Shown here piece by piece: positions 15,723-43,811 of a stretch of DNA of 43,811 nt. The translations under genes and the position numbers were made by a program. Numbering within the stretch: the stretch's first letter is position 1; every line of letters begins with the position of its first letter. The notes beneath the pieces are model-generated. The model saw nothing but the letters and a program-made list of their open reading frames with translations. It had not been told where the DNA came from and searched no databases. The DNA comes from Cyanobacteriota bacterium (GTDB lineage: Bacteria > Cyanobacteriota > Cyanobacteriia > Thermostichales > Thermostichaceae): contig JANRIL010000033.1 in assembly GCA_033764955.1 (NCBI GenBank), positions 1 to 43,811 of the forward strand, given 5' to 3'.

Positions 15723-15954
15723 AATTTGCATCCTCAGGGGAAACAGCCAGACGCCGCCGGATAGGCTCAAGACTGAGGGCGCTCCGTTGGCGTTCCGTCC
15801 GATGAACCCACAATTTCTTCGGTGACTAAACCGATTAAACACGCCCGGATCCCCCCCTTCCCCATGACGTTTGAACTAATTTTATTGACGACAATCCGCA
15901 ATCTTGTTTGCAATCGGGAGGAATGGTCGGGTTGATGGTATCGTGAGGGCTTGA

Positions 15955-20751: not shown

Positions 20752-21171
20752 GTGCCTCCTCCCCGTAAGTCTGCCCACAAAATTGAGCTGACCGGAATCT
20801 ACCCTTGTCCTTGTTGCCACCAAGGTCAACTACGTCCGATTACCCTGACCGAGGCATTGGGATGTAGCCGTTGCCAGCATATTTTTGCTTTGATGCCCGA
20901 TCACCTGCATATTGAGCAGTTGGCGGTTTCCTATCCCTATCGCAAACTTTGGTATTGGAATGGATCCCATTGGAGCCTGTGCCGGGAAGAAAGCGCCCCC
21001 CAATCTATGTTGCTTGGTCTAGCCCTGGGGCTGATTGTCTTGATTGCCCTGAGTTTTATCGTCGCCACCCAACTGGAGGGGCAAGGGGAGTTAGTCATTT
21101 GGCTGGCAATTGCCATGATTTTTTTGCTGGGGTTGTTAACCGTGTTGATCTTGATTTTGCGGCGTTCTTAG
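20752..21171 (+). CDS. Cys-rich (zinc-ribbon-like) membrane protein of unknown function
   Basis: YPCPCC...LTEALGCSRC, W-x-W-N-G-x-x-W, then two C-terminal transmembrane helices. GTG start. Confidence 0.75.
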   Translation: MPPPRKSAHKIELTGIYPCPCCHQGQLRPITLTEALGCSRCQHIFALMPDHLHIEQLAVSYPYRKLWYWNGSHWSLCREESAPQSMLLGLALGLIVLIALSFIVATQLEGQGELVIWLAIAMIFLLGLLTVLILILRRS

Positions 21172-21311
21172 GAAGAAAGAAGTAACAAACAGCTCGGTTA
21201 GCAAGGTGGGGTCGGTTCGGGCTAGAGAAGAAATCGGTTTTGAGCATTAATCACAGTACACTCACAACAGCTCCTTGCTGTTCTTGGCCCAACGTTTGGA
21301 TAACTCTGCCT

Positions 21312-25559: not shown

Positions 25560-25871
25560 GGGATCCCACCTTAAATTATGACTAAGTCAATATTAATCAC
25601 GGTAGGGTTTCGATCTTCTCCCTATCTCCAGGTAAATCCTGATCTCCAGATCAAAAGATTTCAGGAAAAACCTGAAGTTAGTATGATCTTAATTTCAATA
25701 TATTTATACATATATTCATGTGTATATGCGCTCTTTAGATTTGTATTGATGAAAGCTGATGGGTAGCTTATGGGTATAGTAAAGAATCCCCCTAGGGGGG
25801 ATAGAAGAAGGCAGAAGGGAGTAAACTAAATTGAGAATCCTAAATATTGCTTGGTAGGTATTTTTGGTTAT

Positions 25872-28800: not shown

Positions 28801-28934
28801 GACAAAGTGGCACAGGTCTGGGATTGGCGTTGGTTAAGCAGAGTGCTGAAAGTTTGGGTGGATCTATTAAGGTAGAGAGCCGCGCCAACCAAACCACCTT
28901 TACTCTGCGGATCCCGCCTAGGCTGTCTCGATAA
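25872..28934 (+). CDS. Cytoplasmic sensor histidine kinase: PAS-PAS-GAF-PAS-GAF-HisKA-HATPase
   Basis: Three PAS/PAC ends (GRDITERK, IRDVTQLK, GRDITKQK), two GAF domains, H-box VSHELRTPMT, N-box ELLINALKYT and GTGLGL. Start ATG 25872 (TTG at 25851 is possible). Confidence 0.92.
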   Translation: MSGNSHDLTWLDWTIRLLTELVERLEKPNQANTPISLAGEASDAPLYQTLVRYQGIANLQTDLVTCYTPDFIHTFVNQAYCQLIHKSADQVIGHSIFEFIPPEKHDDIRQLRNYLTVENPIYCHEEKLTLSDRSILWYEWIDQGLFDQRDQLLEIQSVGRDITERKRTEQILQDRERRFRLLAENASDMIFRFSIRPALGFEYVSAAATNITGYTPEEHYANPNIAYETFHPDDIHLVETQIKNRELFPQPLIYRYIRKDGTMVWVDNRITPIYDENGILIATEGIIRDVTQLKQAECALRQQIKREETLNQLTQIIHQLLDLDQIFVNVVQAFVKLLGVDRAAINRYFPNQFNWLAIAEGLADEQKDSSVGLEIPDHNNPFSIVLKNLQVITITPSNPPTDPINQALYQRFPGSWLLVPIALHPHSPIRETTGLQVWGSLAIVIEKDVGQWSPFLLSMMESIAEQLSTAIHQAELYQELRTLNQDLEQRVLQRTEELQQNENLYRAIVEDQTEFVSRSLPDTTILFVNGAICRATGKERTYFPGKRWIDWLPDDQKSKVLEGIAALTPENPIFVSDNQGFIGQHEYLLVQWTNRGIFNQQGQLIEIQAVGRDITKQKKAEDDLRKALEFESLLKRITDNVRDSLDEAQILDTVVQELGFGLGVDGCNTSIYDFTRTVAVIEHEFRLDSHSILGRVFQLADYPHNTHQLLGGQYFQYCDVESPYGIVATSFACPIRDDQEAIGELWLTRAADQYFSELEIRLVEQVATQCAIGIRQARLYQAAQQQVEELEKLNQLKEDFLATVSHELRTPMTNIKMALQMLKLTYPNPRSQHYLQILEGECDREIRLINDLLDLQREESFTKSLNLQILDLATWLPQLLEPFALRFQQSEHPLQIDIAANLPTFETDVSVLERILTELLINALKYTPSGQPIRLSVEWLAPAITFVITNFGVEIPAHYLPRLFEKFFRLPDHDRWRQSGTGLGLALVKQSAESLGGSIKVESRANQTTFTLRIPPRLSR

Positions 28935-29124
28935 GAAGGCTGTTGGAGCAATACTCCGACCATCGGGATCCCTAATTATCACCGCGCAGATAACGTACAG
29001 ACCGCATTGAGTTCCCCTCCCCCCCAAAACTAGGGATCCCTAATCGGTATCAAGCCGGAGCAAGAGAGGCAGAGGCAACCAAGATCTGCCAAGATAAGAG
29101 GTGTTCTGGTGAGTTAGTTTTTTC

Positions 29125-29748
29125 ATGATCGACCTCTATACCTTTACTACCCCCAATGGTCGCAAAATTTCTATCATGTTAGAAGAGGTTGAACTTCCTT
29201 ATACCGTACATATTATTAACATCATTAAAGGCGATCAAAATACACCCAGCTTTCGTGCGATCAACCCTAATGGAAAAATTCCCGCTATCATTGATCAAGA
29301 CACGCAAATGTCGATTATTGAGTCTGGCGCTATTTTAATTTATCTTGCCGAGAAAACTGGAAAACTGTTGCCTAGTGATCTCAAATCTCGCTCTCACGTT
29401 TTACAGTGGTTGATGCTTCAAATGTCAGGAGTGGGTCCAATGTTTGGGCAAATGAATCACTTTCGTCGCTTTGCTAGCGAAAAAATTCCCTATGGTATTG
29501 AGCGCTATACCCAAGAGTCACAACGGCTGTTAGGGGTTCTTGATCAACAACTGGCTCAACATCCTTATCTGGCTGGAGAATATTCTATTGCTGATATTGC
29601 CACCTATCCTTGGATTCATTCCTATGAGCGATTTGGTTATTCGGAAGGGTTAACGCTTGACCCATATCCTCATGTTAAACGTTGGTGTGAGGAAGTTGCC
29701 AGTCGCCCCGCCGTGATCAGAGGGATGGCTGTTCCTAGTCTTGGCTAG
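29125..29748 (+). CDS. Glutathione S-transferase, YfcG/Nu-class-like
   Basis: MIDLYTFTTPNGRK, INPNGKIPAI, ESGAILIYLAEK and YSIADIATYPW. Confidence 0.93.
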   Translation: MIDLYTFTTPNGRKISIMLEEVELPYTVHIINIIKGDQNTPSFRAINPNGKIPAIIDQDTQMSIIESGAILIYLAEKTGKLLPSDLKSRSHVLQWLMLQMSGVGPMFGQMNHFRRFASEKIPYGIERYTQESQRLLGVLDQQLAQHPYLAGEYSIADIATYPWIHSYERFGYSEGLTLDPYPHVKRWCEEVASRPAVIRGMAVPSLG

Positions 29749-29878
29749 ATTTCATAGCTCAGATTAGTAGTCAACTGGGTAGTAGAGATCGGCCTTTTCG
29801 TGGGCAGGAGCAATAGGGATCGCAATATCTCAATAGTTCACTACCGATGAAAATTTACGGATAGTTGATAGACCACTT

Positions 29879-31798
29879 ATGGATTTAGATCTATCTCCCC
29901 TTTGGCTATCACTCAAAATTGCTGGGCTAGCAACGAGTTTAACTTTTGTGCTTGGAATTGCGGCTGCCCGTTGGTTATTAAACTATCAAGGTCGTTGGCG
30001 TGGTTTGATTGATGGAATGTTGATTACTCCATTAGTTCTACCTCCCACCGTCGTAGGTTTTTTATTGTTGGCGCTGCTGGGTCGTTACAGTCCTCTGGGC
30101 AGCTTGTTAGAAAACTTTGATATCCAGTTGATTTTTAATACTCAAGCAGCGGTCATCAGTGCAACCATTGTTGCTTTTCCCTTAATGTATCGAACAACAT
30201 TGGGATCCTTTGAGCAGATTGACCCCACCTTGCTGGGAGCTGCCCGCACATTAGGGGTTAGTGAATGGGTTGTATTTTGGCGAGTTATGCTCCCACAAGC
30301 CTATCGAGGCATTTTAGGGGGGACTATCCTAAGTTTTGCCAGAGCCTTAGGAGAATTTGGGGCTACATTAATGTTGGCTGGCAATATTCCTGGGCGTACA
30401 CAAACGATGCCGATTGCCATTTTTTTTGTGGCGGAATCAGGCAATCTCTCAGAAGCTTTGATTTGGGTAATAATTCTATTGCTAATCTCTTCTTCGGTCA
30501 TCTATTTGCTCAATCTTAGTTCGCTTCCATCTGGTCGATCTGATGCTAAAGGCAAATCTATGCTCAAGTCGGCTGCTGTTATTCAAAAGGATCCCTTATC
30601 CCTACCCCTATCCCAAAATAGAGAGCAATATGGTCAGCAAAGTAGCCAGCAAAATACTGAGCAACCTCAGTTAGTAGTTCGGATCCAAAAACACTTGGCT
30701 AATTTTGATCTCAATATTCAGTTTCACATTCATCCTGCCGATTATTCTGGTTCTGATTCTGATTCAAATTTATCATCAGCTCAACTTCCTCCCTTGCTGG
30801 CTTTAGGGATCCTAGGGGCATCGGGTTCTGGGAAAAGTATGATTTTACGCTGTATTGCTGGCTTAGAAAATCCCGACCAAGGAGAGATACTTCTTAATGG
30901 CCGACAGTTGTGGGCTAGCCATCCTCCTGTCAATTTACCAAGCTATCAACGGCGCATCGGTATTGTCTTTCAAAACTATGCACTTTTCTCCCATCTGACG
31001 GTCTGGCAAAATATCGCTTTTGGTTTATATCGTTTATCCCAAGTAGAACAGTCGGCTCAGATTACCCCCTGGATTCACCGCCTAGATTTGCAAGGATTAG
31101 AAACTCTTTTTCCCCATCAGTTGTCTGGTGGGCAGCAGCAACGGGTGGCTTTAGCGAGGGCAATGGTTTTGCAGCCAGAAGTGCTATTGCTGGATGAGCC
31201 GTTTGCAGCTTTGGACACCCATTTGCGAAGTCGTGTCGAGCAACAACTACGCCAAGCGCTGGCTGACTATCGGGGCATCGTCATCTGGGTTTCCCATCAC
31301 TTAGAAGAACTCTATCGTCTCTGTCGTCGCCTCTTGGTTGTGGATGGTGGGCAGGTGCTAGCCCAGGCGGCGCGGCAGGCGATTTTTCAGAATCCAGGTT
31401 CTGAGCAAGTGGCGCGACTAACGGGCTGTAAGAATATCTCACCCGTTCTTGTCTTCTCCGATCACGAGGTGCTGGCGGAAGCTTGGGGATGTAAGCTGCA
31501 CCTAGATCAGCCGCTGTCCTCCGCTGTCACTGGTATCGGGATCCACGCCCATCACCTCAACTTTGTAACCCCTGGAGTGGCCATCAACAGTTTTCCCTGC
31601 TGGTTAGCAACCAGTATCGAGTCTCCCCACGAAATAACCCTTTACCTAAAACTCTTCGCTCCCGCCAGGGATGCCGATGACTTTGCCCTGACGCTTGAAA
31701 TCGACAAAAAGACCTGGCAATCCCGTCAATCACTGCCTTGGCCGTGGTGGGTGCAACTGGATGCTATCCATTTGATGCCCCTGTATAGGGATCCGTAA
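29879..31798 (+). CDS. modBC: Fused molybdate ABC permease / ATPase (ModB-ModC)
   Basis: ModB motifs PLVLPPTVVGF and FARALGEFGATLMLAGNIPGRTQT; ModC motifs GASGSGKS, LSGGQQQRVALAR and LLLDEPF. One continuous 639-aa frame. Confidence 0.9.
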   Translation: MDLDLSPLWLSLKIAGLATSLTFVLGIAAARWLLNYQGRWRGLIDGMLITPLVLPPTVVGFLLLALLGRYSPLGSLLENFDIQLIFNTQAAVISATIVAFPLMYRTTLGSFEQIDPTLLGAARTLGVSEWVVFWRVMLPQAYRGILGGTILSFARALGEFGATLMLAGNIPGRTQTMPIAIFFVAESGNLSEALIWVIILLLISSSVIYLLNLSSLPSGRSDAKGKSMLKSAAVIQKDPLSLPLSQNREQYGQQSSQQNTEQPQLVVRIQKHLANFDLNIQFHIHPADYSGSDSDSNLSSAQLPPLLALGILGASGSGKSMILRCIAGLENPDQGEILLNGRQLWASHPPVNLPSYQRRIGIVFQNYALFSHLTVWQNIAFGLYRLSQVEQSAQITPWIHRLDLQGLETLFPHQLSGGQQQRVALARAMVLQPEVLLLDEPFAALDTHLRSRVEQQLRQALADYRGIVIWVSHHLEELYRLCRRLLVVDGGQVLAQAARQAIFQNPGSEQVARLTGCKNISPVLVFSDHEVLAEAWGCKLHLDQPLSSAVTGIGIHAHHLNFVTPGVAINSFPCWLATSIESPHEITLYLKLFAPARDADDFALTLEIDKKTWQSRQSLPWPWWVQLDAIHLMPLYRDP

Positions 31799-31980
31799 CG
31801 TTGGAGACAAGGGAGAACTTGCTTTCTCCCAACCTGTGATCGGTAGGTTGCCGGAATGATTACAGATTTCTTTAACACAGCTTGTTCAACTCTTTGTTGC
31901 CATTGACATCACATACTGTTACATCTTTTCTAGAGAGGCAATGTAGAGGGATCAGATCCTTTAGCCTAGATTTATTAGGG

Positions 31981-34929
31981 ATGAGTAAAACCATAAAGGT
32001 GCAAACGGTGCTAATCAAACTGAAACAAATGGTTGCGGCATACCGCCCTTTCCTTGGTCTTTTACTATTGATCCCCGCCTGTTTTATTGGGAATCTAATG
32101 CGATGGACACTATTCTTCAACATTGATTTTATATTTGGTTCGATAGCCGTTTGGTTGGTTGTTTATCTGTATGGACTTCGTTGGGGTATCTTGGCAGGAT
32201 TTGTGGGAGGTTTGTGCACCTATTTTCTCTGGGGTCATCCTTATGCCGCCATTATTTTTACCTGTGAGGCTCTGCTTGTTGGAGGATTATTTTATCGATA
32301 TCATCAAAATATTGTTTTACTGGATGGATTCTTTTGGTTGTTGATCGGAATGCCGCTAGTTAGTTTATTTTACGGAGGAATTTTAGAGGTTAGTCCAACA
32401 CAAACTGAGATTATTCTTCTCAAACAATCAGTCAATGGAATCTTTAACAGCTTAGTAGCTAGTCTGATGCTCACCTACATCCCCATCGCACGATGGCTCA
32501 GACTTCCTCAGGCAGTTAATAAGCTATCTTTTCAGCAAACCTTATTCAATTTATTGGTTGCCTTCCTTTTCTTTCCTACCTTGCTTCTGATTATTTTATC
32601 AAGTCGCAATGTTGTTAACTCCATTCGTTCTGAGGCTGAAGTTGATTTGAACTATGCTTCGAGCAATACGGTCACAGCCATTCGAGCTTGGCATCAAGAA
32701 CATTTGCGATCTATTGAGGAAATTGCCTATCAGCTAAATACTCTGGGTCAAACTGACTCCGATCACTTGCGAGAACATTTAGCGATAACCCAAAGGTTAC
32801 TATCTGATTTTAGCCATTTGACTATTATTGATGCAGAAAGCAATCAAGTTCTTATTACTACCCAAACAAAAGATGCAGATCTTTTAAGCCTTTATCCTAA
32901 TAATCAAAAGTTTTTAGAGATCGCTAAATCTACCCTTGAACCTATCATTTCTAATCTTTTACCTCAACAGGGATCTAACCTGATCTCATCTAGGCTTATC
33001 TGGAACATTCCGATTGTGCAAGACAATCAAATCAAATGGCTAATTCTGGCTGAAATTAATCTGGATCACTTAGAAAATTTACTGCTGAGGAATAATGATA
33101 ATTTAATCACGATGACGCTGCTAGGGCGTGGTGAGATTGTTATCGCTAGCACGGATCAAAATCGAAAAACAGGACAATTCTACAATCTCCAACAAACGGG
33201 ATCCCTAGAACAACTGGACTCGCAAACCTATCAATGGTTTTCTAACGAAGGCAGCCAATTGATGATGGTGCGATGGAGTAACTCTTTATTTGTGCAGGAG
33301 TCACCAATCGTAACTGGTTTGCCCTGGACATTAATTGTTGAATCACCTGCTGAAGCTGAGGTAGAGCGGATTGTTACTATCTTCTCCAATAACTTAGAAA
33401 TTATCCTCTATGTGACAGGGATAGGGTTGATTGCCTCAGCCCTAATCAGTCGTCAATTGGTCAAGCCCCTCACTGAATTGGCGACTGCCACTAATAATTT
33501 GCCCAGTAAGCTATCCACCGGAGAGCCTATCGTCTGGGTAGATAGTCAAATTGCAGAAATTAACTTTTTGTCGAGGAATTTCTATAAAATGTCCCAGACT
33601 CTCTCGGAGAAATTTCAGCAAATTCAGCAGGCTTTGAGTTATGATCTTCTCCTCAAACGTATTACCGATAGCGTGCGAGATAGTCTTGACGAATCCCAGA
33701 TTTTACAAACCGCGGTTCAAGAACTGGGTCACGGGATCCCGGTGATTTCTTGCGATGCCGCTATCTATAATGCGGATCAGACGGTCTCAACAATCTGCTA
33801 TGAATATACAACATTACCAGCCTCGGCACTGGGACGATCGTTACCCATTCCAGATATTTTTCCAGATGTTTATCAACAATTATTGCGTGGGGAGTATTGC
33901 TTATTCTGTTATATGACTGATCACCCATTTCGTCCGATTAAGCAAGAAAGCACTGTCATAGCTTGCCCAATCGTAGATGATCAACAAGTCTTGGGTGATC
34001 TATGGCTATTTAAGCCACGTTATCAATCATTTGATAGTCAAGAACTGAGATTGGTGCAACAGGTTGTGAATCAGTGTGCCATTGCCCTCCGGCAAGCTCG
34101 ACTTTATCAAGTAGCTCAAGTTCAGGTGAGAGCTTTGGAAGAACTAAACCTCTTAAAAGATGATTTCTTGAGTACCGTTTCCCACGAATTACGCACGCCA
34201 ATCACAAACATGAAGATGGCTATCAACATGCTCCGAATTACAGAGGATCCAGAACGTCGCAGTCGCTATCTGACGATTCTAGAAACTGAGTGCGGTCGTG
34301 AATCCGAACTCATTAATGACTTGCTTGACTTGCAGCGATTGGCTTCGGGAACGAAAGTTCTGGAACTCCAGCCGATAGTTTTACGAGAATGGGTTGACCG
34401 TGTGATTGAAGCTTTTCAGGAGCGAATGCAGAGTCGTCAGCAAATTCTTCAGGTTGACATTTTTCCACAGCTACCTATTATTACTTCTGATCTTAATTGC
34501 TTGGAACGAATTTTTAGTGAGTTGCTCAACAATGCCTGTAAGTATACACCCCCAGGAGAATCGATTAAGGTAACAGTACGATCTACTAGATTAGCTACTA
34601 CTTCATTGGTTGATTCTCAAGTAAAAATCAACAATGAGCCTGTAGAAACCGTTGAAACTCCTAACAGGGAACCGCCCATGAAGTTGATTTTAGATGTATG
34701 CAATTCAGGGGTAGAGATTCCTGCTCACGAACTCGGTCATATCTTTGAGAAATTCTATCGGGTTCCTGGCATTGATCGCTGGAAACAGGGAGGCACGGGC
34801 TTAGGGCTAACACTCGTGCAAAAGATGACGGAACGACTAGGTGGCAATGTACACGTCAAGAGTATGGAAAATCAAACCTGTTTCACCGTTGAGCTGCCGA
34901 TCGACTCCTCCAACTATTCCCTCAATTAG
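31981..34929 (+). CDS. Membrane sensor histidine kinase: multi-TM N-terminus, Cache-like periplasmic domain, HAMP, GAF, HisKA, HATPase
   Basis: Several N-terminal TM helices, ~260-aa extracytoplasmic region, TM plus LVKPL..L HAMP, GAF, VSHELRTPIT, ELLNNACKYT and GGTGLGL. Start uncertain (31981 or 32029). Confidence 0.9.
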   Translation: MSKTIKVQTVLIKLKQMVAAYRPFLGLLLLIPACFIGNLMRWTLFFNIDFIFGSIAVWLVVYLYGLRWGILAGFVGGLCTYFLWGHPYAAIIFTCEALLVGGLFYRYHQNIVLLDGFFWLLIGMPLVSLFYGGILEVSPTQTEIILLKQSVNGIFNSLVASLMLTYIPIARWLRLPQAVNKLSFQQTLFNLLVAFLFFPTLLLIILSSRNVVNSIRSEAEVDLNYASSNTVTAIRAWHQEHLRSIEEIAYQLNTLGQTDSDHLREHLAITQRLLSDFSHLTIIDAESNQVLITTQTKDADLLSLYPNNQKFLEIAKSTLEPIISNLLPQQGSNLISSRLIWNIPIVQDNQIKWLILAEINLDHLENLLLRNNDNLITMTLLGRGEIVIASTDQNRKTGQFYNLQQTGSLEQLDSQTYQWFSNEGSQLMMVRWSNSLFVQESPIVTGLPWTLIVESPAEAEVERIVTIFSNNLEIILYVTGIGLIASALISRQLVKPLTELATATNNLPSKLSTGEPIVWVDSQIAEINFLSRNFYKMSQTLSEKFQQIQQALSYDLLLKRITDSVRDSLDESQILQTAVQELGHGIPVISCDAAIYNADQTVSTICYEYTTLPASALGRSLPIPDIFPDVYQQLLRGEYCLFCYMTDHPFRPIKQESTVIACPIVDDQQVLGDLWLFKPRYQSFDSQELRLVQQVVNQCAIALRQARLYQVAQVQVRALEELNLLKDDFLSTVSHELRTPITNMKMAINMLRITEDPERRSRYLTILETECGRESELINDLLDLQRLASGTKVLELQPIVLREWVDRVIEAFQERMQSRQQILQVDIFPQLPIITSDLNCLERIFSELLNNACKYTPPGESIKVTVRSTRLATTSLVDSQVKINNEPVETVETPNREPPMKLILDVCNSGVEIPAHELGHIFEKFYRVPGIDRWKQGGTGLGLTLVQKMTERLGGNVHVKSMENQTCFTVELPIDSSNYSLN

Positions 34930-35170
34930 AAACGAACCCATTACTCATCCGGTTCACTCCAGAAAGCGGCTTTACCTCCCCACAGCAGCCAGGAATAGAG
35001 AAAAGCGTTCTGGGAGCACCGGCGGGAAAAATTTCTAGATATAGCGCTAGGGTTTGCATGGATTTCCCGCCAATCAAGGAAATTTGGGCTTGTCATCCCC
35101 CAGATCTAGCATTAATCCCCTGAGTGTCTGTTACACTTATGGGCAATTTGAGTGGGATCCCCCCTTAACC

Positions 35171-36445
35171 ATGCCTTCGTTTCTGCATGTGGCGGATGTT
35201 CATCTTGGTTTTGATCGCTACGAGAGTCCTGAACGGACGAAGGATTTTTTCTATGCTTTTCGAGATGTGCTGCAACGCTATGCCGTGGAAGCCGCCGTTG
35301 ATTTTGTTTTGATTGCCGGAGATTTGTTTGAGCATCGCACCATTTTACCCAACACATTGAATCAGGCTGAATTAGCTCTAGGTTTACTCAAACAAGCCGG
35401 GATCCCGGTGCTAGCGATTGAAGGAAATCATGATAACTGTCCCTATGGGGTTAAAACCAGTTGGTTGCGTTATCTAGCCGATCATGATTTCTTAAGGCTA
35501 CTGGAACCCATCTATGAGCCAGAAACTCAACTGTTAGCGTGGTCAGATTCCAACAAAAGAGGAGGATATTGCGATCTCCCTTGTGGAGTGCGTGTGATCG
35601 GCTCTAACTGGTATGGATCTTCTGCTCCCAAGGCTATTGATGATCTAGCCAAAGCTATCCACAATCTGCCTAAAAACCCAACGATTAACCAGACGATTTT
35701 GATGTTTCATCATGGGTTGGAAGGGCAAATTGCCCGCTATCAAGGTGCTTTACGTTATGCAGATCTGATGCCCTTACGAGAGGCGGGGATTGATTATTTG
35801 GCTCTTGGGCATATTCACAAAAGTTATACCGTTGAGGGGTGGATTTTTAATCCAGGATCGTTGGAGGCTAACAGCATTGCTGAAAGTGAATTTGAGCGGG
35901 GCGCTTATTACGTCCACCTTAGCCCAGGATTTGTTCAAGCTAAATTGATACAAGACCATCAACAGCGACCCTGTTACCGTCTGGATTGGGAGGCAAAAGG
36001 GCGAGAAACCCTAGAGGAAATTCAAGAGACGATCCTAACGATTGTCCAGCAAGCTGTGATACCCAACTCTCCGCAAGCAATTGTAGAATTTAAGTTAAAA
36101 GGACAAGTAGGGATCCCAAAAAGCAGCTTCGATGAGCGTCGGATTAAGCAAGACATTCAACAGATTACTCACGCTCTCATTGTCATTTTTCGCTGGGAAG
36201 CCAAAGCTCTAGATTTTGACTTGTCTCCTGCTACTGTGGATGATAATCAAAGAATGGCTGTAGAAACACAAGTTTACCACGACCTTTTGGCCAGTCATGC
36301 CCACTACCGCAAGCGTAGTCAAGAGCTAGCAAATGTACTTCTTGATCTCAAAGAACAGGTAATCGATGGACAGCCAGAAAGGGTGAGTTATGAACGCCTT
36401 GGGCAGGCCTTTCTGGGTAACTCCTTTGGTATGGAGGAAGCATAG
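35171..36445 (+). CDS. sbcD: Mre11/SbcD-family nuclease (metallophosphoesterase)
   Basis: All phosphoesterase motifs are present: ADVHLG, AGDLF, EGNHD, MFHHG, LGHIH and NPGS. ATG at 35171. Confidence 0.93.
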   Translation: MPSFLHVADVHLGFDRYESPERTKDFFYAFRDVLQRYAVEAAVDFVLIAGDLFEHRTILPNTLNQAELALGLLKQAGIPVLAIEGNHDNCPYGVKTSWLRYLADHDFLRLLEPIYEPETQLLAWSDSNKRGGYCDLPCGVRVIGSNWYGSSAPKAIDDLAKAIHNLPKNPTINQTILMFHHGLEGQIARYQGALRYADLMPLREAGIDYLALGHIHKSYTVEGWIFNPGSLEANSIAESEFERGAYYVHLSPGFVQAKLIQDHQQRPCYRLDWEAKGRETLEEIQETILTIVQQAVIPNSPQAIVEFKLKGQVGIPKSSFDERRIKQDIQQITHALIVIFRWEAKALDFDLSPATVDDNQRMAVETQVYHDLLASHAHYRKRSQELANVLLDLKEQVIDGQPERVSYERLGQAFLGNSFGMEEA

Positions 36446-36450
36446 ATAAG

Positions 36451-39400
36451 ATGCGTATCCTATCCATTGCACTTAGAAACTTCAAAAATCATCAAGATAA
36501 TTATTTTGCTTTCGAGGATGGAATTAATGCGATTTGTGGTGAAAATGGTTCTGGAAAAACAAGTATTTTAGAGGGTATTGCTTGGGTTTTATTTGATTAC
36601 ACTCCCTATGTTGAGAAAGAAATGATTCGATTGGGGGCTAATAGTGCAGAGGTAGCTGTCAATATCATTTCCAATCGAGACTATCGCACCTATGAAGTCC
36701 GCCGCAGCACTACCAAGGGGTATACTCTCTACGACCCACAGTTGAATCAACGTTTAGAATATGAGCGTAAAGCAGATGTTTTACACTGGATTCGTGAGCA
36801 GTTAGGAGTTCCATCTGGCACTGATTTAGCTCGACTCTTCACCACAACCATTGGGGTTCCACAGGGCTTATTTACGGCTGATTTCCTCAAGACACCTCAA
36901 GAACGCAAAAAAACATTTGATTGCATTCTCAAGGTAGAAGAGTATCAAACTATTTATAAAGACTTACTACCTTTAGAAAACTATAGCAAGGAGCAGATAT
37001 CAGAGATTAGCCATCAACTTAATCGTCGAGAAGAACGTTTGCTGGAGTGGGAAACCCTGCATTCTCAACAGCAAAATCTCACAGAACTCCTCACGGAAAA
37101 GCAGGCTGAGCTTAGCCAAACTCAAAGTTCCCTCAGCCAATATCAACGGGAAGTAGTTCGGCTAGGGGGTATCTCCCAAACCCTTAGCGATTGGGATCAG
37201 CAGCTTCAGCAACTGTATCATCAGGGATCCCTTTATCAGGTGCAACTACAACAAGCAGAGAAGCTCTGGCAGGAGGCAGAACAAGCTCAATCGGAGGTGA
37301 GGCAGCATACCGACGGATATCAAGCCTACTTAGCGGCTGAACAGCACTTAGCTAATCTAGAGGATCGTTATCAACAAAGGCAGTCTATCCTTGCTGAGCG
37401 ACAGCGCCTTTGGGAGCTGCATCAAGCTGAAAATGATCAGCACATTCGCCTGCAAGAGCGTTTAGTTCAGTTTGAGAAAATCCGTACACAAATTGAGCAG
37501 CTACAGCCCCTTGCTGCCCAGCAAAATCAGTGGCTAGAGCAACAACAATATTTAATAGAGCAAATCCAAAAACGGCAAGCCATCATAGATCAAGTTACAA
37601 TCCTGCGTACTCATTGGGAAAGTCAGAATGAATGGATAGGGCAAAAAAGACAAGCTCTAGAAGCAGCGCATCAAGCCTATCAGCAATGCCAGCAGCATCA
37701 ACCAGGATATGAAGCTTACATTCATGCGGAAATCGAGTTATCTAAACTGGATCAGAGCCTACAAAAGCAGCGCCATTTACTAAAGCAGAGGGAACAAGCT
37801 CAAGCAAGCTACCACAAACTTCAGGTGGAACAAACCAAGCTCGATCAGCATCGTCAACGGGCGATCGAGCTCGAACACAATATTCATGCTCATCAACCTC
37901 AATTGGCTCAACAAAAAAGCCTAGAAACAAAGCAGGTGGAGCTGAAGGTTAAGATACAAGAATTTCAAAGTCTCCGCCTACAACTGGGTCAACGAGAAGC
38001 TGAGCAAGCGGAACGACAAAAGTATAGACAAACCTTTGTTGAACAACTTGCTCAACGCCAAACCCTACAACAACAGGTGGCACGGATCCCTGAATTAGAG
38101 CAGCAACAGGAACGACTCACCTCACAATTAAGTCGCCTAGCTGCTGCCCAGCAATTTCATCAGGAATTACTGAATCTAACGAAAACTGGTCATGCTAGAT
38201 TCACAGCCCATCAACAACGGATAGAGCAGGTTCTACAAAGATTCGCTAATCTAGACCAGGAGTTTCCAGAAGTAGCTCACCGCTTGGCAGCGATCCCTAA
38301 CTTGTTTCAAGAGGGATGTCAAATTAGCCAATATTTATTGGATGGCATCCAAGTGATTCTCCAGGATATCTCCAATCAAGTTTCACCCAAGGATTTGGAA
38401 GCACAGCAACAAAATCTTAAGGCAGAATTGCAACAAATCTATCCATTGCAGGGATTAGTCAATGAAATTCCTGAGTTACAAGTGCAAATTCAAGCCTATG
38501 AAAAAAGCATAGCCGAACTACAAGAAAATATTGACGATTTGTTATGGCAAACGGAAGCGGAAGCCCTATTTTTACGTCAATTGGCGGAATTAGAAACTCA
38601 GATGGAAATTATAGGGGATCCCGCAGCTCAAATCAAGCTTTGGCAGATGGAACGCGATGCAATTCCCTCATGGCAAGAGGAGTGGTTGACCATCGTGGCT
38701 GAGTTGGAGAAACAATCTCAGACCCTTCAACAACTGGAGACGACCTTAAGCCGGGTGCAAGATTTAGATGCTCAGGTTGCCGTCCAGCAACACATCAAAA
38801 TGAATCACAAAAATGACTATGAGCTTTATTTGCAGGCTCATAACTTAGCCAGCACCTTCTCTCATCATCAAGCAGATTTAGAACTATCCCTTGCTAAACT
38901 GCAAGAAATTGAGCAAACAGGAAAAAAATACCAGGATCAAATCAATCAACACCAGAACCAGACGGGATCCCTGGCGGCAATGACTGAGCAGTTAACCCTA
39001 ATTCAAGAACAGCTCCAGCAACTTCGGGATCCCCACAGTCAAATCCTCCGATATCAAGAAATCCTCTTGGAGGAACCCAAAATCCTTGAGCAGTTTCAGC
39101 GATCTCAACAACAGTTAACTGCTACTCAAAGTCACCTTGAACATCTAAATCGGCAGTTAACCGAAACCATAGCCATTGATGCTGAAATGACCCAATGGCG
39201 GGAAGCCAAGCAACAATATCGTTTGTCATACGAAACCTATAAAGCCCATGAGGCTCTGGTTCACCTATTACCCGAACGAGAAAAAAACTATCGAAACTTA
39301 CAAGCCGATATCCAAGCTAATCAAGCTCAACAAACGCAACTTCGTCTGAAACGGGATCCCTTGGCAGCGAGTTATAGTGCAGACTATCATCAAACCGCTC

Positions 39401-40023
39401 AGGCTAATCTCCGACAAGCCGAAATTAAGCAGGCTAGCTTAGCAAGTGAAATTCAATCTTTGGAACCCCAGCTAGCCGCTATAGAAGCTAAGCTGACTGA
39501 GCTGGAGACGATACGCCTTGAAAAACAAGAATATGAAGTTAACTTAGCAGAGCGGGAACGACTCCACCGATTTATTAAGTTTAGTCGCAGTGTATTCAAA
39601 GACGCTGGCCCACGCATCACTAAGCTTTATCTGCAAAATATCAATATTGTTGCTGATCAACTATTTCGAGAAATCCTGAATCGCTCGAATGTTTCTCTCA
39701 CATGGGAAACTGATTATGATATCACTATTCAAGAGGGAGGTAGCCCGAAACGACGATTTGCCTGCTTGTCAGGGGGTGAACAAATGTCGGCAGCACTAGC
39801 AGTGCGCCTTGCTCTACTTAAGGTTTTGGGTGATTTGGATGTTGCCTTTTTTGATGAACCCACTACCAATATGGATCGACAACGCCGCCAACAATTGGCA
39901 GAAGCCATTAATCAAATCCGCTCCTTTCGGCAGATTTTTGTGATTAGTCATGATGATACTTTTGAGCATATCACCGAAAATATTATCAGGGTGGAAAGGA
40001 AGGAGTTTAATTATGGCTATTAG
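36451..40023 (+). CDS. sbcC: Rad50/SbcC-family SMC-like ATPase
   Basis: Walker A GENGSGKTS, Q-loop VPQG, ~850-aa Gln/Glu-rich coiled coil, signature LSGGEQ, Walker B FFDEPT and ISHD. Starts 5 nt after the sbcD stop. Confidence 0.93.
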   Translation: MRILSIALRNFKNHQDNYFAFEDGINAICGENGSGKTSILEGIAWVLFDYTPYVEKEMIRLGANSAEVAVNIISNRDYRTYEVRRSTTKGYTLYDPQLNQRLEYERKADVLHWIREQLGVPSGTDLARLFTTTIGVPQGLFTADFLKTPQERKKTFDCILKVEEYQTIYKDLLPLENYSKEQISEISHQLNRREERLLEWETLHSQQQNLTELLTEKQAELSQTQSSLSQYQREVVRLGGISQTLSDWDQQLQQLYHQGSLYQVQLQQAEKLWQEAEQAQSEVRQHTDGYQAYLAAEQHLANLEDRYQQRQSILAERQRLWELHQAENDQHIRLQERLVQFEKIRTQIEQLQPLAAQQNQWLEQQQYLIEQIQKRQAIIDQVTILRTHWESQNEWIGQKRQALEAAHQAYQQCQQHQPGYEAYIHAEIELSKLDQSLQKQRHLLKQREQAQASYHKLQVEQTKLDQHRQRAIELEHNIHAHQPQLAQQKSLETKQVELKVKIQEFQSLRLQLGQREAEQAERQKYRQTFVEQLAQRQTLQQQVARIPELEQQQERLTSQLSRLAAAQQFHQELLNLTKTGHARFTAHQQRIEQVLQRFANLDQEFPEVAHRLAAIPNLFQEGCQISQYLLDGIQVILQDISNQVSPKDLEAQQQNLKAELQQIYPLQGLVNEIPELQVQIQAYEKSIAELQENIDDLLWQTEAEALFLRQLAELETQMEIIGDPAAQIKLWQMERDAIPSWQEEWLTIVAELEKQSQTLQQLETTLSRVQDLDAQVAVQQHIKMNHKNDYELYLQAHNLASTFSHHQADLELSLAKLQEIEQTGKKYQDQINQHQNQTGSLAAMTEQLTLIQEQLQQLRDPHSQILRYQEILLEEPKILEQFQRSQQQLTATQSHLEHLNRQLTETIAIDAEMTQWREAKQQYRLSYETYKAHEALVHLLPEREKNYRNLQADIQANQAQQTQLRLKRDPLAASYSADYHQTAQANLRQAEIKQASLASEIQSLEPQLAAIEAKLTELETIRLEKQEYEVNLAERERLHRFIKFSRSVFKDAGPRITKLYLQNINIVADQLFREILNRSNVSLTWETDYDITIQEGGSPKRRFACLSGGEQMSAALAVRLALLKVLGDLDVAFFDEPTTNMDRQRRQQLAEAINQIRSFRQIFVISHDDTFEHITENIIRVERKEFNYGY

Positions 40024-41215
40024 ATCGGCTTCTATCCTGTCCGTTCTGGAGCAAAAGCGAGAACAGTTTGATAGTTTTGATCTGCACAGTAGTGAACGGC
40101 GACAGCAATACCTAAATGCCATGCGGCAGCTCAAAGACTGGCCTAGTCTAAAAATTTATGAACAACTCAGTACGGTTTCCTTTCCTGGATCCCTGCCAAC
40201 CGAAGAATGGGATCACTACGCAAGCTGGCAAATTCCGTTTGCCCATGACTTTCATAACCATGAGGAAAGCCTATTGTGGGTTAATCAAACCATTCAGAAT
40301 ATCTCCACATTTGCTGTAGATGGCTCCCAAATTTATCCCTCCAAGGATATTTCTCTACCGATAGCTCTCATTCAGATTGGCTGGTTTGAGAACCGCCACA
40401 CTCCGGAGGGTCTCTACGAAAAAGATATTCGTGTAGACGTTCTTAGTCCTTCGGATCTGGGAGCCAATAACAGTGGAGATCCAAAGGAACGTATCGTCAA
40501 TATGCGGCGATTTGAGATGGAGATTCAGCGAATTATTGAATATATGGAACATATGGGATCCCATCAACAGCACCGCTCATGCTTAGCATTCTTGGATGGT
40601 TCACTGATTGCCTCCTTTGCCGAAGCCTTTGAACCTAGCCAGCAGGATCGTTATATTCAATCCCTCTTAAATTTATTACGCGCCAGTGAAACCTATCGAG
40701 TTCCACTGGTTGCTTATATTGATACCACTTACACGCGAGATTTGATCACCTTTTTGCAATATGTGTTTGATCTCCCAGAAGCTCCCCAACTGCATGATGC
40801 TCAACTGTTAGAGACTTACTTAGAGTGGGGAGATCGCTCTCCCTGCTGGGTTTGTGCCCGTGGAGGACTACAGTCTGGACAGACTGGCATCTTACATCAT
40901 TATCAAGAAATGCGAGAACGGGTGGGATTTGTTTATCTTAAAACAAACGATAACTATCCCGTTCGTTTAGAGATTCCTATATGGATTCAAGAAATGGGTT
41001 GGCTGGACTGGTTGGTTGATATTGTCCGTTGTGAGGTGATTATTGGCCGTGGTTATCCTTATGCTATTGAGACAGCTGATCAAACGGCGGTGCTGCGAAA
41101 CGAGGATCGCCATATATTCTTGAAGGTGCTACAAGATTGGTCGCAGCGAGAAAACCTCCATCTCAAGCTTTCTCGTAAAACTGTTAGTAAGATGCAGAGG
41201 AGGAGAGTCCGATGA
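40013..41215 (+). CDS. nurA: NurA-family DNA double-strand break repair nuclease
   Basis: Motifs FAVDGSQ, FLDGSL, VRLEIP and GYPYAIETAD. RBS AGGAG at 40001; ATG 40013 overlaps the end of sbcC by 11 nt. Confidence 0.9.
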   Translation: MAIRSASILSVLEQKREQFDSFDLHSSERRQQYLNAMRQLKDWPSLKIYEQLSTVSFPGSLPTEEWDHYASWQIPFAHDFHNHEESLLWVNQTIQNISTFAVDGSQIYPSKDISLPIALIQIGWFENRHTPEGLYEKDIRVDVLSPSDLGANNSGDPKERIVNMRRFEMEIQRIIEYMEHMGSHQQHRSCLAFLDGSLIASFAEAFEPSQQDRYIQSLLNLLRASETYRVPLVAYIDTTYTRDLITFLQYVFDLPEAPQLHDAQLLETYLEWGDRSPCWVCARGGLQSGQTGILHHYQEMRERVGFVYLKTNDNYPVRLEIPIWIQEMGWLDWLVDIVRCEVIIGRGYPYAIETADQTAVLRNEDRHIFLKVLQDWSQRENLHLKLSRKTVSKMQRRRVR

Positions 41216-41901
41216 GGTTAGGGAAGGTTGTTAAGTCTAATAATCACTGTGATTATGTGGTAGAAGTTGATGACCGCTTAAGTGTTAAGAGTCCTCCGGC
41301 TGCCGATGATTATGGTTTCGGGTGTTTTGTGAGGCTAGATACCCACAACCGGCACTGGGGGGTAGGGGTTATTTACAATACCCAACTGTTTAATCCAGCC
41401 TTTCTCAATTCTGGCCCCCGTTTATCCAGCCAGCCCAATCCAATCTATTCTCCCGACCTGCAAAATGAGATTAAGACGCTTCTTGCTGTTGTGCTGATTG
41501 GTAGCTTACAAGAAAAGATTCTACCTGCTAGACCCGACAGTCAAACCAAACCCACACTCAAATCAGAATCTTCTTCAAAACCACGACCAGACTCTAGCCC
41601 TAGTCCATCAGCTACTACCTATTATGGCTATCAAGGGATCCCAAAAGCCGTTGTTCCTATTGATACTTTGGTTTATCGTATGACCAGTCAAGAAATCCAT
41701 CAATTTCATCAGAATATTGAGGGAAAAAGTCAATTTACTTATTATGGGCTATTGCTTAATTGTGGAGGTATTTTCTCAAGTCACCTAATTCAGCAAGTGC
41801 TCAATGAAATTAGTGAAATGTTTGAAGGTAGTCAACGACGAGCCATAGAAACGTTGAGCAAAGAACTTTCTTGGAAAATGACGATGGGGGCAATGCGGTG
41901 A
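41212..41901 (+). CDS. Stand-alone HAS-barrel-like protein
   Basis: MRLGKVVKS..., FGCFVRL, GVIYN and YQGIP...P...VY..T..EI..F, a pattern like the N-terminal barrel of HerA. No ATPase motifs. ATGA overlap with nurA and TGATG overlap with herA. Confidence 0.75.
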   Translation: MRLGKVVKSNNHCDYVVEVDDRLSVKSPPAADDYGFGCFVRLDTHNRHWGVGVIYNTQLFNPAFLNSGPRLSSQPNPIYSPDLQNEIKTLLAVVLIGSLQEKILPARPDSQTKPTLKSESSSKPRPDSSPSPSATTYYGYQGIPKAVVPIDTLVYRMTSQEIHQFHQNIEGKSQFTYYGLLLNCGGIFSSHLIQQVLNEISEMFEGSQRRAIETLSKELSWKMTMGAMR

Positions 41902-43580
41902 TGAATACAGTGAATCAAAATCATTCAACTTACACGGGTGAGCAACGGGATCAAGTGATTGGAACGGTGAAAGGACCTGGAGAAGAGGCTAATCAATATA
42001 TTTTCATTACCTCTAATACTCAGGCAGTAAAAGTAGGAGAGTTTGTCTATTATGAAAGTATTGGCAAAGCTCAAAAAATTCTGGGTAAAATTTCCCAACT
42101 TCAGCTCTTGGATCATTTACCCGATCGAATTTTTGCCGACACTGACATTGATCCGAGTGCCATCGTAGCCCTGATTGGTTTCAGCTATCCCAATCCAGAA
42201 ATTTATGCTGTTACGGTAGAGGTGATTGGCTACTTCCATAGAGCGATGGGCTTTGTCAATCCGCGCCAAGCACCTGATCCGGGATCCAAAGTCTTTCTTG
42301 CCTCCCATGAAATGCTGCGAACTGTCCTCAATAAACGACAGATGCAGGATATTGGTGGTGCCCATTTGGGCAGCCTTCTCCTAAGAGAAGAAGGAGATGT
42401 GCCTGTGGTGCTCGATGTTAAAGAATTAGTCAGCACCCACCTGGCTATTTTGGCAGGTACTGGATCCGGTAAATCCTATACAGCAGGGGTTTTAATCGAA
42501 GAATTGCTTTTACCTAAAAACCGTGCCGCTATCCTCATTTTTGATCCCCACGGAGAATATGGGACTCTCAGTGAGATGCAGTCTCACCCCACTTTTTGGA
42601 CAGAAGATGGCTATCGCCCCAAGGTGAAAGTTCTCACACCTGATCAAATCAAAATACGAGTTTCTTCTCTTAATTTCTATGATATTTTGACATTATTGCC
42701 GGATATGTCTGATCGTCAGCAGTCCTTTCTTGAAAAAGCATTTCTAGCCACTACTCAACACAATCAACAACGCTGGACGATTCAAGATTTGATTGATGCG
42801 GTTAACGATGCCGACTCCTCACAAGATGGTACGCAGGGATCCTCCGCCGCGGCTCTCCAGTGGAAGCTAGATAGAATTGATCGTTCTCCCTATTTTAGTA
42901 ATATCGAACATTTAGCTCCACGGGAATTATTTGAACCTGGGCAAGTGACGATCCTGCAAATGAATGAAATTAGCCAGGATGAACAGCAAGTCATTGCCGC
43001 TGCCATTTTGCGACAAGCCAATCATGCTCGCATGAATACCCATAAAGGCAAAATTTCTGAGCAGGAAGAAACCTATTTGCCCTTCCCAGTCTTTATTTTG
43101 ATTGAAGAAGCTCATCGTTTTGCTCCGGCTCACGAACCTTCCCGCTGCAAACAGGTGCTCCGCACAATTTTGAGTGAGGGTCGTAAGTTTGGTTTGGGTG
43201 TGGGGTTGATTACCCAACGCCCAGGGAAATTAGATTCTGATATATTATCGCAGTGCATGAGCCAGTTTTTGATGCGAATTGTTAACCCGATTGATCAAGA
43301 AAATCTGCGCCACAGCGTCGAAGCCGCCGGACGAGATCTGTTGAGCGAGTTACCTTCATTGAGCAAAGGCCAAGTGATTGTCTCGGGGGTCTGTGTGAAT
43401 ACTCCGGTTTTGTGCAAAGTGCGCCAACGTCATACCAAACATGGTGGACAAACCCTAGAAATCCTAGAGATTTGGCAGCAACATTTTCAATTGCACCAAC
43501 AACGAGAACGTTTGGTCAAATCTGCCCCCCTCCGCTCCCGTTCTCAACCTCACGTTTTGGATGGGTTAAGTATCGACTAG
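41901..43580 (+). CDS. herA: HerA-family helicase/translocase (DUF87)
   Basis: N-terminal HAS barrel (IGTVKG, VGEFVYY, PDPGSKV), Walker A HLAILAGTGSGKS, FDPHGEY, Walker B ILIEEAH, Arg finger EGRKFG and TQRP. Confidence 0.93.
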   Translation: MNTVNQNHSTYTGEQRDQVIGTVKGPGEEANQYIFITSNTQAVKVGEFVYYESIGKAQKILGKISQLQLLDHLPDRIFADTDIDPSAIVALIGFSYPNPEIYAVTVEVIGYFHRAMGFVNPRQAPDPGSKVFLASHEMLRTVLNKRQMQDIGGAHLGSLLLREEGDVPVVLDVKELVSTHLAILAGTGSGKSYTAGVLIEELLLPKNRAAILIFDPHGEYGTLSEMQSHPTFWTEDGYRPKVKVLTPDQIKIRVSSLNFYDILTLLPDMSDRQQSFLEKAFLATTQHNQQRWTIQDLIDAVNDADSSQDGTQGSSAAALQWKLDRIDRSPYFSNIEHLAPRELFEPGQVTILQMNEISQDEQQVIAAAILRQANHARMNTHKGKISEQEETYLPFPVFILIEEAHRFAPAHEPSRCKQVLRTILSEGRKFGLGVGLITQRPGKLDSDILSQCMSQFLMRIVNPIDQENLRHSVEAAGRDLLSELPSLSKGQVIVSGVCVNTPVLCKVRQRHTKHGGQTLEILEIWQQHFQLHQQRERLVKSAPLRSRSQPHVLDGLSID

Positions 43581-43670
43581 ATTTTGTTGATCTTGCCCTT
43601 GAGACAGGGGAGAATGTCCACAAGTTAGAGAAAGTTCAAGAGACCCTTTGCTAGCTTGTTGAAACAAAGG

Positions 43671-43811
43671 TACAGCTTTTTCGTTATTTACATAGAACAT
43701 GAATGAGTTAAGGTTAGAGAGGTTGAGTTTTCCAACAGCATGAGCCGTTATTCCCTTGACCTCCGAAAGAAAGTGGTAGCAGCCTATCATCTCGGCAATA
43801 CCTCCATCCGC
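43671..43811 (+). mobile_element. IS630-family insertion sequence, left end (runs off the window)
   Basis: A transposase start at 43740. The left boundary is guessed at TA-CAGC (43671) because IS630 elements target TA; the partner inverted repeat is outside the window. Confidence 0.65.
43740..43811 (+). CDS. IS630-family transposase N-terminal HTH (partial)
   Basis: MSRYSLDLRKKVVAAYHLGNTSIR matches the YSxDLRxxVV start of ISY100/IS630 transposases. Confidence 0.8.
   Translation, partial: MSRYSLDLRKKVVAAYHLGNTSIR

Follow-up and report, generated by a model that had tools for sequence, protein, structure and literature searches.

The question raised by this locus is whether a cyanobacterium encodes an archaeal type of machine for processing broken DNA ends, and what the additional protein encoded with it might do. 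Resection of the ends commits the cell to recombinational repair. Bacterial resection is attributed almost entirely to RecBCD, AddAB and RecJ/RecQ, and the Mre11-Rad50-HerA-NurA pathway of archaea is regarded as having four proteins. Here, we analysed a whole contig of 43,811 bases (C3, hereafter the window) from a cyanobacterial genome of 3.8 Mb (48 contigs, 89% complete, 11 matches to phycobilisome proteins across the genome). Five co-directional open reading frames (ORFs) on its plus strand, at positions 35171-43580, encode a Mre11-type protein, a Rad50-type protein, NurA, DUF8166 and HerA. We propose, with a probability of about 0.6, that this operon specifies a five-part double-strand-break end-resection machine serving recombination, a function assigned by analogy, and that the Mre11-Rad50-HerA-NurA resection system of archaea has a bacterial relative in this machine. 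The features of the locus are as follows.

34930..35170, plus strand: intergenic region of 241 nt, just before the operon; presumed promoter region
35171..36445, plus strand: Mre11-type calcineurin-like phosphoesterase, 424 aa; ATG at 35171, protein starts MPSFLHVADVHLG
36451..40023, plus strand: Rad50-type SMC/ABC ATPase, 1190 aa; head motifs and a long coiled coil
40013..41215, plus strand: NurA nuclease, 400 aa, type 2; aggaaggag before the ATG
41212..41901, plus strand: DUF8166 protein, 229 aa; free-standing HAS barrel (predicted fold) with C-terminal helices
41901..43580, plus strand: ATPase of the HerA hexameric translocase type, 559 aa, type 2; DUF87/HerA Pfam match

The genes are tightly packed and translationally coupled. 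A gap of 5 nt (36446-36450) separates the Mre11-type from the Rad50-type gene, the Rad50-type gene and nurA overlap by 11 nt, nurA and the DUF8166 gene share an ATGA overlap, and the DUF8166 gene and herA meet in TGATG. ORFs, coordinates and overlaps were all as claimed in the original prediction, which had been made from the sequence alone. Its identification of Mre11, Rad50, NurA and HerA held as well, each having Pfam matches over the cut-off, and the motifs described there as intact could be read in Mre11, Rad50 and HerA.

In order to see whether the five genes belong together, we looked at their distribution. DUF8166 and HerA were surveyed in 401 sampled Cyanobacteriota genomes. DUF8166 was found in 26 of these, the window genome included (a 27th match, which had E 9.3e-4 and lay in a frame of 572 aa, was not counted), and at a threshold of E<=1e-100 a type-2 HerA (50-81% identity, E<=1e-164) was present in exactly the same 26 genomes. 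Mre11 and Rad50 were surveyed in 53 genomes, namely the 26 DUF8166 carriers and 27 non-carriers of our own choosing. A full-length Mre11-type protein of 39-62% identity occurred in every carrier and in none of the 27 others, where the best match reached 1.4e-11; the same split, 26/26 against 0/27, was obtained for the Rad50-type protein (best non-carrier match 4.8e-14). Among same-class genomes with at least two NurA matches, 17 of 23 carry DUF8166. Co-inheritance of the genes, on which the original prediction had been staked, was thus tested and found to be strict.

We then asked how the genes had been passed on, using maximum-likelihood trees of HerA and Mre11 built from the 26 carriers with a Chloroflexota-type outgroup. 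All six multi-member families form clades in these trees, and the number of label changes, 12, is the minimum and was equalled in 0 of 200 shuffles. In both trees the class Cyanobacteriia is a clade with support of 100, and family f39, of another class, is one with support of 99 and 95. Since the HerA and Mre11 trees follow taxonomy, inheritance has been vertical. Two genes that are not linked thus have the same history, one resembling the taxonomy. It can be concluded that the five genes have descended vertically and as a set in Cyanobacteriota, including the genomes in which they are scattered. The system looks old, and looks to have been lost from most later lineages.

The extent of this scattering was seen in the gene neighbourhoods. 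The complete operon is present in G272, the only sampled genome of the same family as ours. From 185,579 species genomes, the 80 best DUF8166 loci were surveyed, with kinase matches excluded from the count. The operon is complete in nine of them, and one more is cut by a contig end; the complete-operon loci bear the titles hot-spring 'Synechococcus sp.'/Thermostichus-type and 'Synechococcaceae'. Partial clusters among the best 80 have the orders NurA-DUF8166-HerA, DUF8166-HerA, NurA-DUF8166 and DUF8166-NurA. DUF8166 stands alone in 57 of the 80 loci, and in 41 of these 57 it is flanked on either side by 3 kb or more. Of 15 same-class loci, 14 have no other gene of the set within about 10 kb of DUF8166, 13 of the 14 NurA loci fetched hold a lone type-2 NurA (the remaining one, L070, holds the core paralogue described below), and Mre11, Rad50 and HerA are found at yet other sites in the genomes with a dispersed set. 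In genome G017 the five genes lie at approximately 0.22, 0.75, 2.25, 2.92 and 4.85 Mb. Strict co-inheritance of scattered genes shows how the parts of a multi-protein machine remain identifiable once the operon has broken up. A different arrangement was found in families f39 and f41, which belong to other classes: Mre11-Rad50 is on one contig, and NurA, a variable insert, DUF8166 and HerA are on another.

Several candidates for further members of the system were considered and rejected. The f39 inserts between NurA and DUF8166 (AIM24, DUF4382 and one without a family) are mutually unrelated, and the histidine kinase upstream of the operon is not conserved beside it in relatives. A 189-aa ORF without a family follows herA in the same direction in six hot-spring loci (L037:7533-8102, minus strand; L079, L080, L083, L089 and L091), with 71-90% identity among them; it is not found there in the closest relatives, L075 and L076, and was not accepted as a sixth gene. 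The window genome has its homologue on another contig (C41:11956-12516, 53% identical). In the genomes with dispersed sets, DUF8166 is often located just downstream of a gene for a 161-aa phycobilisome protein (L039:9113-9598, L045:9069-9554), and ORFs of similar size stand beside it in L040 and L042. In L077, otherwise a complete operon, Mre11 and Rad50 each match as two overlapping pieces, which may reflect a frameshift, a pseudogene or an assembly error.

The system was also found outside Cyanobacteriota. A search of 1.84 billion cluster representatives with a DUF8166 profile gave 315 at E<=1e-3, almost all of them 180-220 aa long. Those that bear a name belong to Acidobacteriota, Chloroflexota and, in one case, a metagenome-assembled genome of Promethearchaeota (Asgard); leads of a similar kind came from the ESM Atlas. 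Two metagenome contigs (L157/L158) carry all five genes in an unchanged order, with ends that overlap or nearly touch; the DUF8166 encoded there is identical to P0275, which belongs to a cluster named Chloroflexota. A third metagenome contig has Rad50 (cut)-NurA-DUF8166-HerA. The description of the system as cyanobacterial therefore holds in that a cyanobacterium carries it, but not in the sense that it is special to this phylum.

The 229-aa DUF8166 protein had no match in hmmscan searches against the Pfam, NCBIfam and PADLOC models, that of the HAS barrel (PF09378) included. It is assigned to DUF8166 by the precomputed Pfam entry PF26500.1, a label borne by all 120 homologues listed out of 333, and its neighbours in the ESM Atlas are DUF8166 clusters (score 0.96, TM 0.74-0.78). 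In this family two conserved blocks stand on either side of a variable linker, which in our protein is long, Ser/Pro-rich (approximately residues 103-135) and specific to the window. An AlphaFold2 model based on 27 sequences reached pLDDT 83.8 and pTM 0.76. With this model Foldseek returned 49 matches at E<=1e-3, and the 29 listed all contain HerA; the best was the Thermococcus kodakarensis HerA-NurA complex (E 7.4e-6). With VIA-align, residues 1-195 of the model could be superposed on residues 1-121 of HerA (Z 13.4, root-mean-square deviation of 2.1 A over 104 residues). The N-terminal barrels of F1-ATPase came next (Z 10-12), and the model also fits the barrel of Deinococcus radiodurans HerA (Z 10.7-10.9). 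DUF8166 is thus predicted to consist of a HAS barrel standing by itself and a helical tail, and to lack an ATPase domain.

Profile-profile alignment of DUF8166 with HerA gave a probability of 0.2%, that is, sequence homology was not detected, and a PDB search with the DUF8166 profile returned nothing (best E 0.53). Because of this lack of sequence homology, the link between DUF8166 and the HerA barrel rests on the predicted fold. The designation of the fourth gene as 'HAS' in the original prediction agrees with that fold, but no Pfam HAS-barrel match was obtained by sequence and the family is DUF8166. The most conserved stretch of the protein (N61, P62, G68-L71, P81 and D82, with the loop pattern NP..L..GPRLS....P..PDL) is the sole part of the model with pLDDT below 50 (loop 61-82), a behaviour that would suit a loop becoming ordered on a partner. 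A putative Ser-His-Asp site (S9, H12 and D14, invariant in cyanobacteria) was dropped, as the His and Asp are not kept in distant members. What such a barrel may do is suggested by work on HerA. In one study, Sulfolobus solfataricus HerA without its HAS domain no longer binds NurA (PMC3326311), and another describes the HAS barrel of D. radiodurans HerA as the NurA-binding surface (PMC9960219).

NurA and HerA of the operon have paralogues in the same genome. The operon NurA matched Pfam PF09376 with 167.5 bits (cut-off 21). Its residues D103-G104, E170 and D195-G196 are invariant in 16 sequences, and D356 occupies the position of a His in core NurA; by analogy, the acidic residues D103, E170 and D195 are probably catalytic. 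A search for a solved structure gave no PDB sequence match to NurA at 1e-3. HerA matched Pfam DUF87 with 187.9 bits (cut-off 23.2), as well as FtsK_SpoIIIE and T4SS-DNA_transf, while its HAS-barrel match of 17.8 bits stayed under the cut-off of 25.2; the NCBIfam model helicase_HerA gave 1e-61 (209.1 bits, cut-off 970). Walker A (AGTGSGKS, 184-192) and Walker B (FILIEEAH, 398-405) are both present. The nearest solved relatives of HerA by sequence are 9x1l (T. kodakarensis HerA-NurA, 9.6e-48) and 4d2i (1.3e-32). A second, core NurA is encoded at C27:23826-24635 (L005:7710-8876, minus strand) beside a PTPS gene and near mutS, and a second, core HerA at C43:66286-66993 (L006:6831-8504) beside PilB/PilT-type ATPases. 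These core genes are unlinked, and their products are 25% and 29% identical to the operon copies. Core NurA is present in almost every sampled genome of the class, one per genome, the exception being family f18 (0/29); its function in cyanobacteria seems to be unstudied.

The two proteins at the head of the operon were compared with Pfam and NCBIfam models. For the Mre11-type protein, Pfam PF00149 (Metallophos) gave 60.2 bits (cut-off 21.5), the top NCBIfam model was Mre11_Pyroc (5.4e-30, 104.6 bits, cut-off 600), and the sbcd model TIGR00619 scored 38.4 bits (cut-off 77.65). We read the motifs DVH, GDLF, GNHD, FHHG and GHIH, which we take to be those that define the Mre11 nuclease. The Rad50-type protein matched Pfam SMC_N (81.7 bits, cut-off 40) and SbcC_Walker_B, the NCBIfam Rad50 model PRK03918 (3.2e-50, 171 bits, cut-off 700) and the sbcc model TIGR00618 (1.7e-21, 76 bits, cut-off 478.5). 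Its head has Walker A GENGSGKT at 30, the signature LSGGE at 1107, FFDEPT and SHD, with about 1000 Q/E/L-rich residues between the two halves. The top NCBIfam models for Mre11, Rad50 and HerA are the archaeal ones.

The zinc hook, at the apex of the coiled coil, is a defining feature of Rad50/SbcC. The window Rad50 has five cysteines in all (29, 158, 413, 623 and 1105), and no CxxC hook was found in it, a point that had escaped the original prediction, or in 15 other Cyanobacteriota homologues. Hooks were readily seen in two positive controls: the same genome's SbcC has CPLC at 520 of 1021, and the Chloroflexota-type Rad50 homologue has a central CPVC at 462 of 905. In f39 and f41, outside the class Cyanobacteriia (L151/G043 and L152/G139), the Rad50-type protein bears an apex insertion of the form C-P-x-L-x3-C. 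Metagenome contig L159 encodes a cut Rad50 in which two cysteines lie seven residues apart. Judged from their sequences, the insertion and the L159 pair may be variant hooks. The hook of this Rad50 seems to have been lost within Cyanobacteriota. Since the Cyanobacteriia Rad50 is without it, tethering of DNA ends by hook dimers is probably absent or achieved otherwise, and the protein offers a natural experiment on Rad50 working without a zinc hook.

As the original prediction placed the operon in the role of RecBCD/AddAB, other end-processing genes were sought in the genome. No RecB over the cut-off, no RecC and no AddAB-sized PD-(D/E)XK protein was found in the 89%-complete assembly, whose incompleteness means that absence of RecBCD/AddAB is not proven. 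The candidates for RecB/AddAB proved to be helicases of the UvrD type, a DEAD+UvrD protein of 2493 aa and a Cas4-Cas1 fusion, and the PD-(D/E)XK matches were a 290-aa frame and the same fusion. A separate SbcC is encoded on C18 (367.6 bits to TIGR00618, below the cut-off of 478.5) and a separate SbcD on C44 (206 bits, over the cut-off), so that a second sbcCD, which the original prediction had suggested looking for, does exist. Synechococcus elongatus, taken as a control because it lacks the system, has no RecC either. Thus, the phrase 'in place of RecBCD/AddAB' fits the absence of these enzymes from the assembly, but is too strong given SbcCD, core NurA and core HerA in this genome and cyanobacteria with neither RecC nor the system. 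Two of the rejected candidates have surroundings or forms of their own: the 2493-aa DEAD-box and UvrD protein (C14:69107-76609; L210:3108-10589, minus strand) has directly downstream a methylase-restriction gene of the MmeI/Eco57I type (L210:294-3095), a candidate defence locus, and the Cas4-Cas1 fusion is a 565-aa protein (C42:586-2283, L211).

The operon was also compared with the closest known systems. The archaeal Mre11-Rad50-HerA-NurA operon of Sulfolobus, Pyrococcus and Thermococcus has the same four families in a tight operon with intact motifs, and the nearest solved relatives of our HerA (9x1l, 4d2i) are archaeal. Unlike the canonical archaeal operon, the cyanobacterial one has a fifth gene, that of DUF8166, between nurA and herA; its Rad50 is without a zinc hook and its proteins score far under the equivalog cut-offs, its bacterial host also has SbcCD, and in most carriers the genes are dispersed. 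'Archaeal-style' is therefore a fair description of content and order only. The NurA-HerA pairs of D. radiodurans and Thermus thermophilus (7f6d, 7wrw) likewise combine a bacterial NurA with a HerA motor, and for D. radiodurans a HAS-barrel-mediated interface has been described (PMC9960219). However, those pairs form operons of two genes and have neither Mre11-Rad50 linked to them nor a protein that is a barrel only, whereas here nurA and herA are split by the DUF8166 gene, with Mre11-Rad50 upstream, and do not form the adjacent pair of the Deinococcus/Thermus type. D. radiodurans HerA was not among the eight PDB sequence matches of the operon HerA at E<=1e-5. In Sir2-HerA/Nezha, DUF4297-HerA and MADS/Lamassu a HerA hexamer carries a partner on its barrel face, and the barrels of anti-phage HerA proteins are top structural matches of the DUF8166 model; here, in contrast, there is no Sir2, DUF4297, methylase or other known effector, descent is vertical and the genes are dispersed. 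Bacterial SbcCD also pairs a calcineurin-like nuclease with a long coiled-coil ABC ATPase, but the operon proteins fall under the TIGR00618 and TIGR00619 cut-offs and have no hook, and the genome has its own SbcCD.

How the five proteins could act together is suggested by archaeal and Deinococcus work. Mre11-Rad50 would recognise and open a DNA end, the HerA hexamer would pump the duplex into a NurA dimer, and NurA would degrade the DNA and help to make the 3' tail for RecA. Acting as an adaptor or regulator, DUF8166 could sit at the interface between the HerA barrel and NurA or be stacked on the HerA barrel ring, with its conserved and poorly modelled loop as the likely contact; it might also join the two halves of the machine. 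A bolder version of this proposal, which we regard as doubtful, makes DUF8166 the obligatory fifth subunit of an ancient resectosome of Cyanobacteriota, Chloroflexota, Acidobacteriota and Asgard archaea, in which a free ring or collar of HAS barrels would couple or gate HerA, NurA and Mre11-Rad50, the cyanobacterial lineage having then dropped the Rad50 hook. If that were true, hook-mediated tethering would not be needed for this mode of resection.

Several of our results weigh against a resection machine. All four named proteins are far under the NCBIfam equivalog cut-offs, the hook is missing and the DUF8166-HerA relationship cannot be seen by sequence. The system was not found in 375 of the 401 sampled genomes and is dispensable for most of the phylum, and a unique repair role is not required of it, the genome already holding SbcC, SbcD, core NurA and core HerA. 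The operon and the preceding 10 kb have a G+C content of 44%, compared with 51.5% for the genome, and PADLOC models (HerA, mad3, mad8 and LmuB) match the two ATPases. In addition, a 2026 review holds that bacterial NurA-HerA mainly degrades foreign DNA as a defence (PMC13748450). The last three points, together with the patchy spread (26/401), would favour an anti-phage or anti-plasmid system in which Rad50/Mre11 senses free or unusual ends and a barrel-controlled HerA-NurA destroys linear foreign DNA, and solved Sir2-HerA and DUF4297-HerA anti-phage complexes do carry their effector on the HerA barrel face. The PADLOC matches reach 3.9e-50 for the HerA models, 1.5e-27 for mad8, 1.3e-28 for mad3 and 4.4e-23 for LmuB. 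The defence-model matches of HerA are at the level of domains and are weaker than that of the repair-type HerA model (1e-61); NCBIfam HerA_antiphage_2, for example, gave 1e-28 and 100.5 bits with a cut-off of 850. However, PADLOC had no match for Mre11, NurA or DUF8166. Moreover, the HerA and Mre11 trees follow taxonomy down to the family with the minimum of label changes, which indicates descent and not the gain and loss seen with islands; HerA is 64-82% identical between families, and most carriers keep all five genes though each stands single among unrelated ones. There is no defence-family neighbour in the window, and no Sir2, DUF4297 or methylase beside the operon. Since inheritance is vertical, we favour repair and consider a defence system unlikely.

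End resection by one five-part machine also has to be set against the idea that two independent modules, Mre11-Rad50 on the one hand and NurA-HerA with a small partner on the other, are merely adjacent. This would suit f39 and f41, with the two halves on separate contigs and with the unrelated AIM24 and DUF4382 inserted between NurA and DUF8166, as well as the NurA-DUF8166-HerA and DUF8166-HerA clusters that have no Mre11-Rad50 nearby. We find it quite improbable: the halves coincide without exception (26/26 against 0/27 for both the Mre11 and the Rad50 type), the complete order of five genes is preserved in two phyla, and the four archaeal proteins are reported to cooperate. Another kind of DNA transaction, such as the handling of incoming DNA in natural transformation or of polyploid chromosomes, appears very improbable. 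The membership of HerA in the FtsK-HerA pump superfamily, seen in its FtsK_SpoIIIE and T4SS-DNA_transf matches, would be compatible with it; so would the reported link of Thermus HerA-like ATPases to DNA transfer (PMC5365140), and the position of core HerA, though this is the other paralogue, beside ATPases of the type IV pilus type. No competence or segregation genes are linked to the operon in the window or in related loci, however, and Mre11 and NurA are nucleases, not transfer proteins.

A literature search found no paper naming DUF8166 and no study of a cyanobacterial NurA-HerA/Mre11-Rad50 system, in agreement with the original prediction, whose author knew of no functional study of the five-gene cyanobacterial version. 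According to that prediction, comparative genomics has noted neighbourhoods of this kind in cyanobacteria, and the FtsK-HerA superfamily paper of Iyer et al. 2004 may be a place where they were already mentioned. In the 2026 review mentioned above, T. thermophilus and D. radiodurans NurA are the only bacterial homologues listed as characterised, and bacterial nurA is said to be without stable linkage to herA, mre11 and rad50 (PMC13748450). The operon described here is a counter-example to this stated lack of linkage. Its overall function is the expected one; what is new is the co-inheritance, the scattering, the vertical descent, the five-gene order in Chloroflexota-type contigs and the hookless Rad50. 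A complete set of genes with an unstudied fifth partner, which has descended as one unit since deep in the history of cyanobacteria and recurs in other phyla, makes DUF8166 a concrete candidate, open to testing, for a subunit so far missing from HerA-NurA machines. The set also gives a way to ask how early-branching cyanobacteria without RecBCD mend the breaks caused by light, heat and drying.

Finally, we examined the surroundings of the operon. The contig ends 231 nt past the HerA stop. A scan of positions 34500-43811 for promoters and terminators gave 12 sigma-70-like sites, with 14.7 expected from shuffles and hence no excess, and a cyanobacterial LexA-box pattern was absent upstream of the operon and occurred six times in the window (7.6 expected, hence at chance level). 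A Pfam scan of the whole window identified as upstream neighbours two histidine kinases, a GST, an ABC transporter and metabolic genes, and matched no defence family elsewhere in the window. Four ORFs are without a Pfam family at E<=1e-4: 13687-15159, 15348-15842 (minus strand), 20752-21171 and 21240-22598, encoding 490, 164, 139 and 452 aa, respectively. The G+C content of the operon lies 5-9 points under that of its flanks in the hot-spring loci L037, L079, L083 and L089, and not in L075, L076 and L157. Within the window, G+C is 53% in the first 25 kb and approximately 44% from 25001 to 43811.

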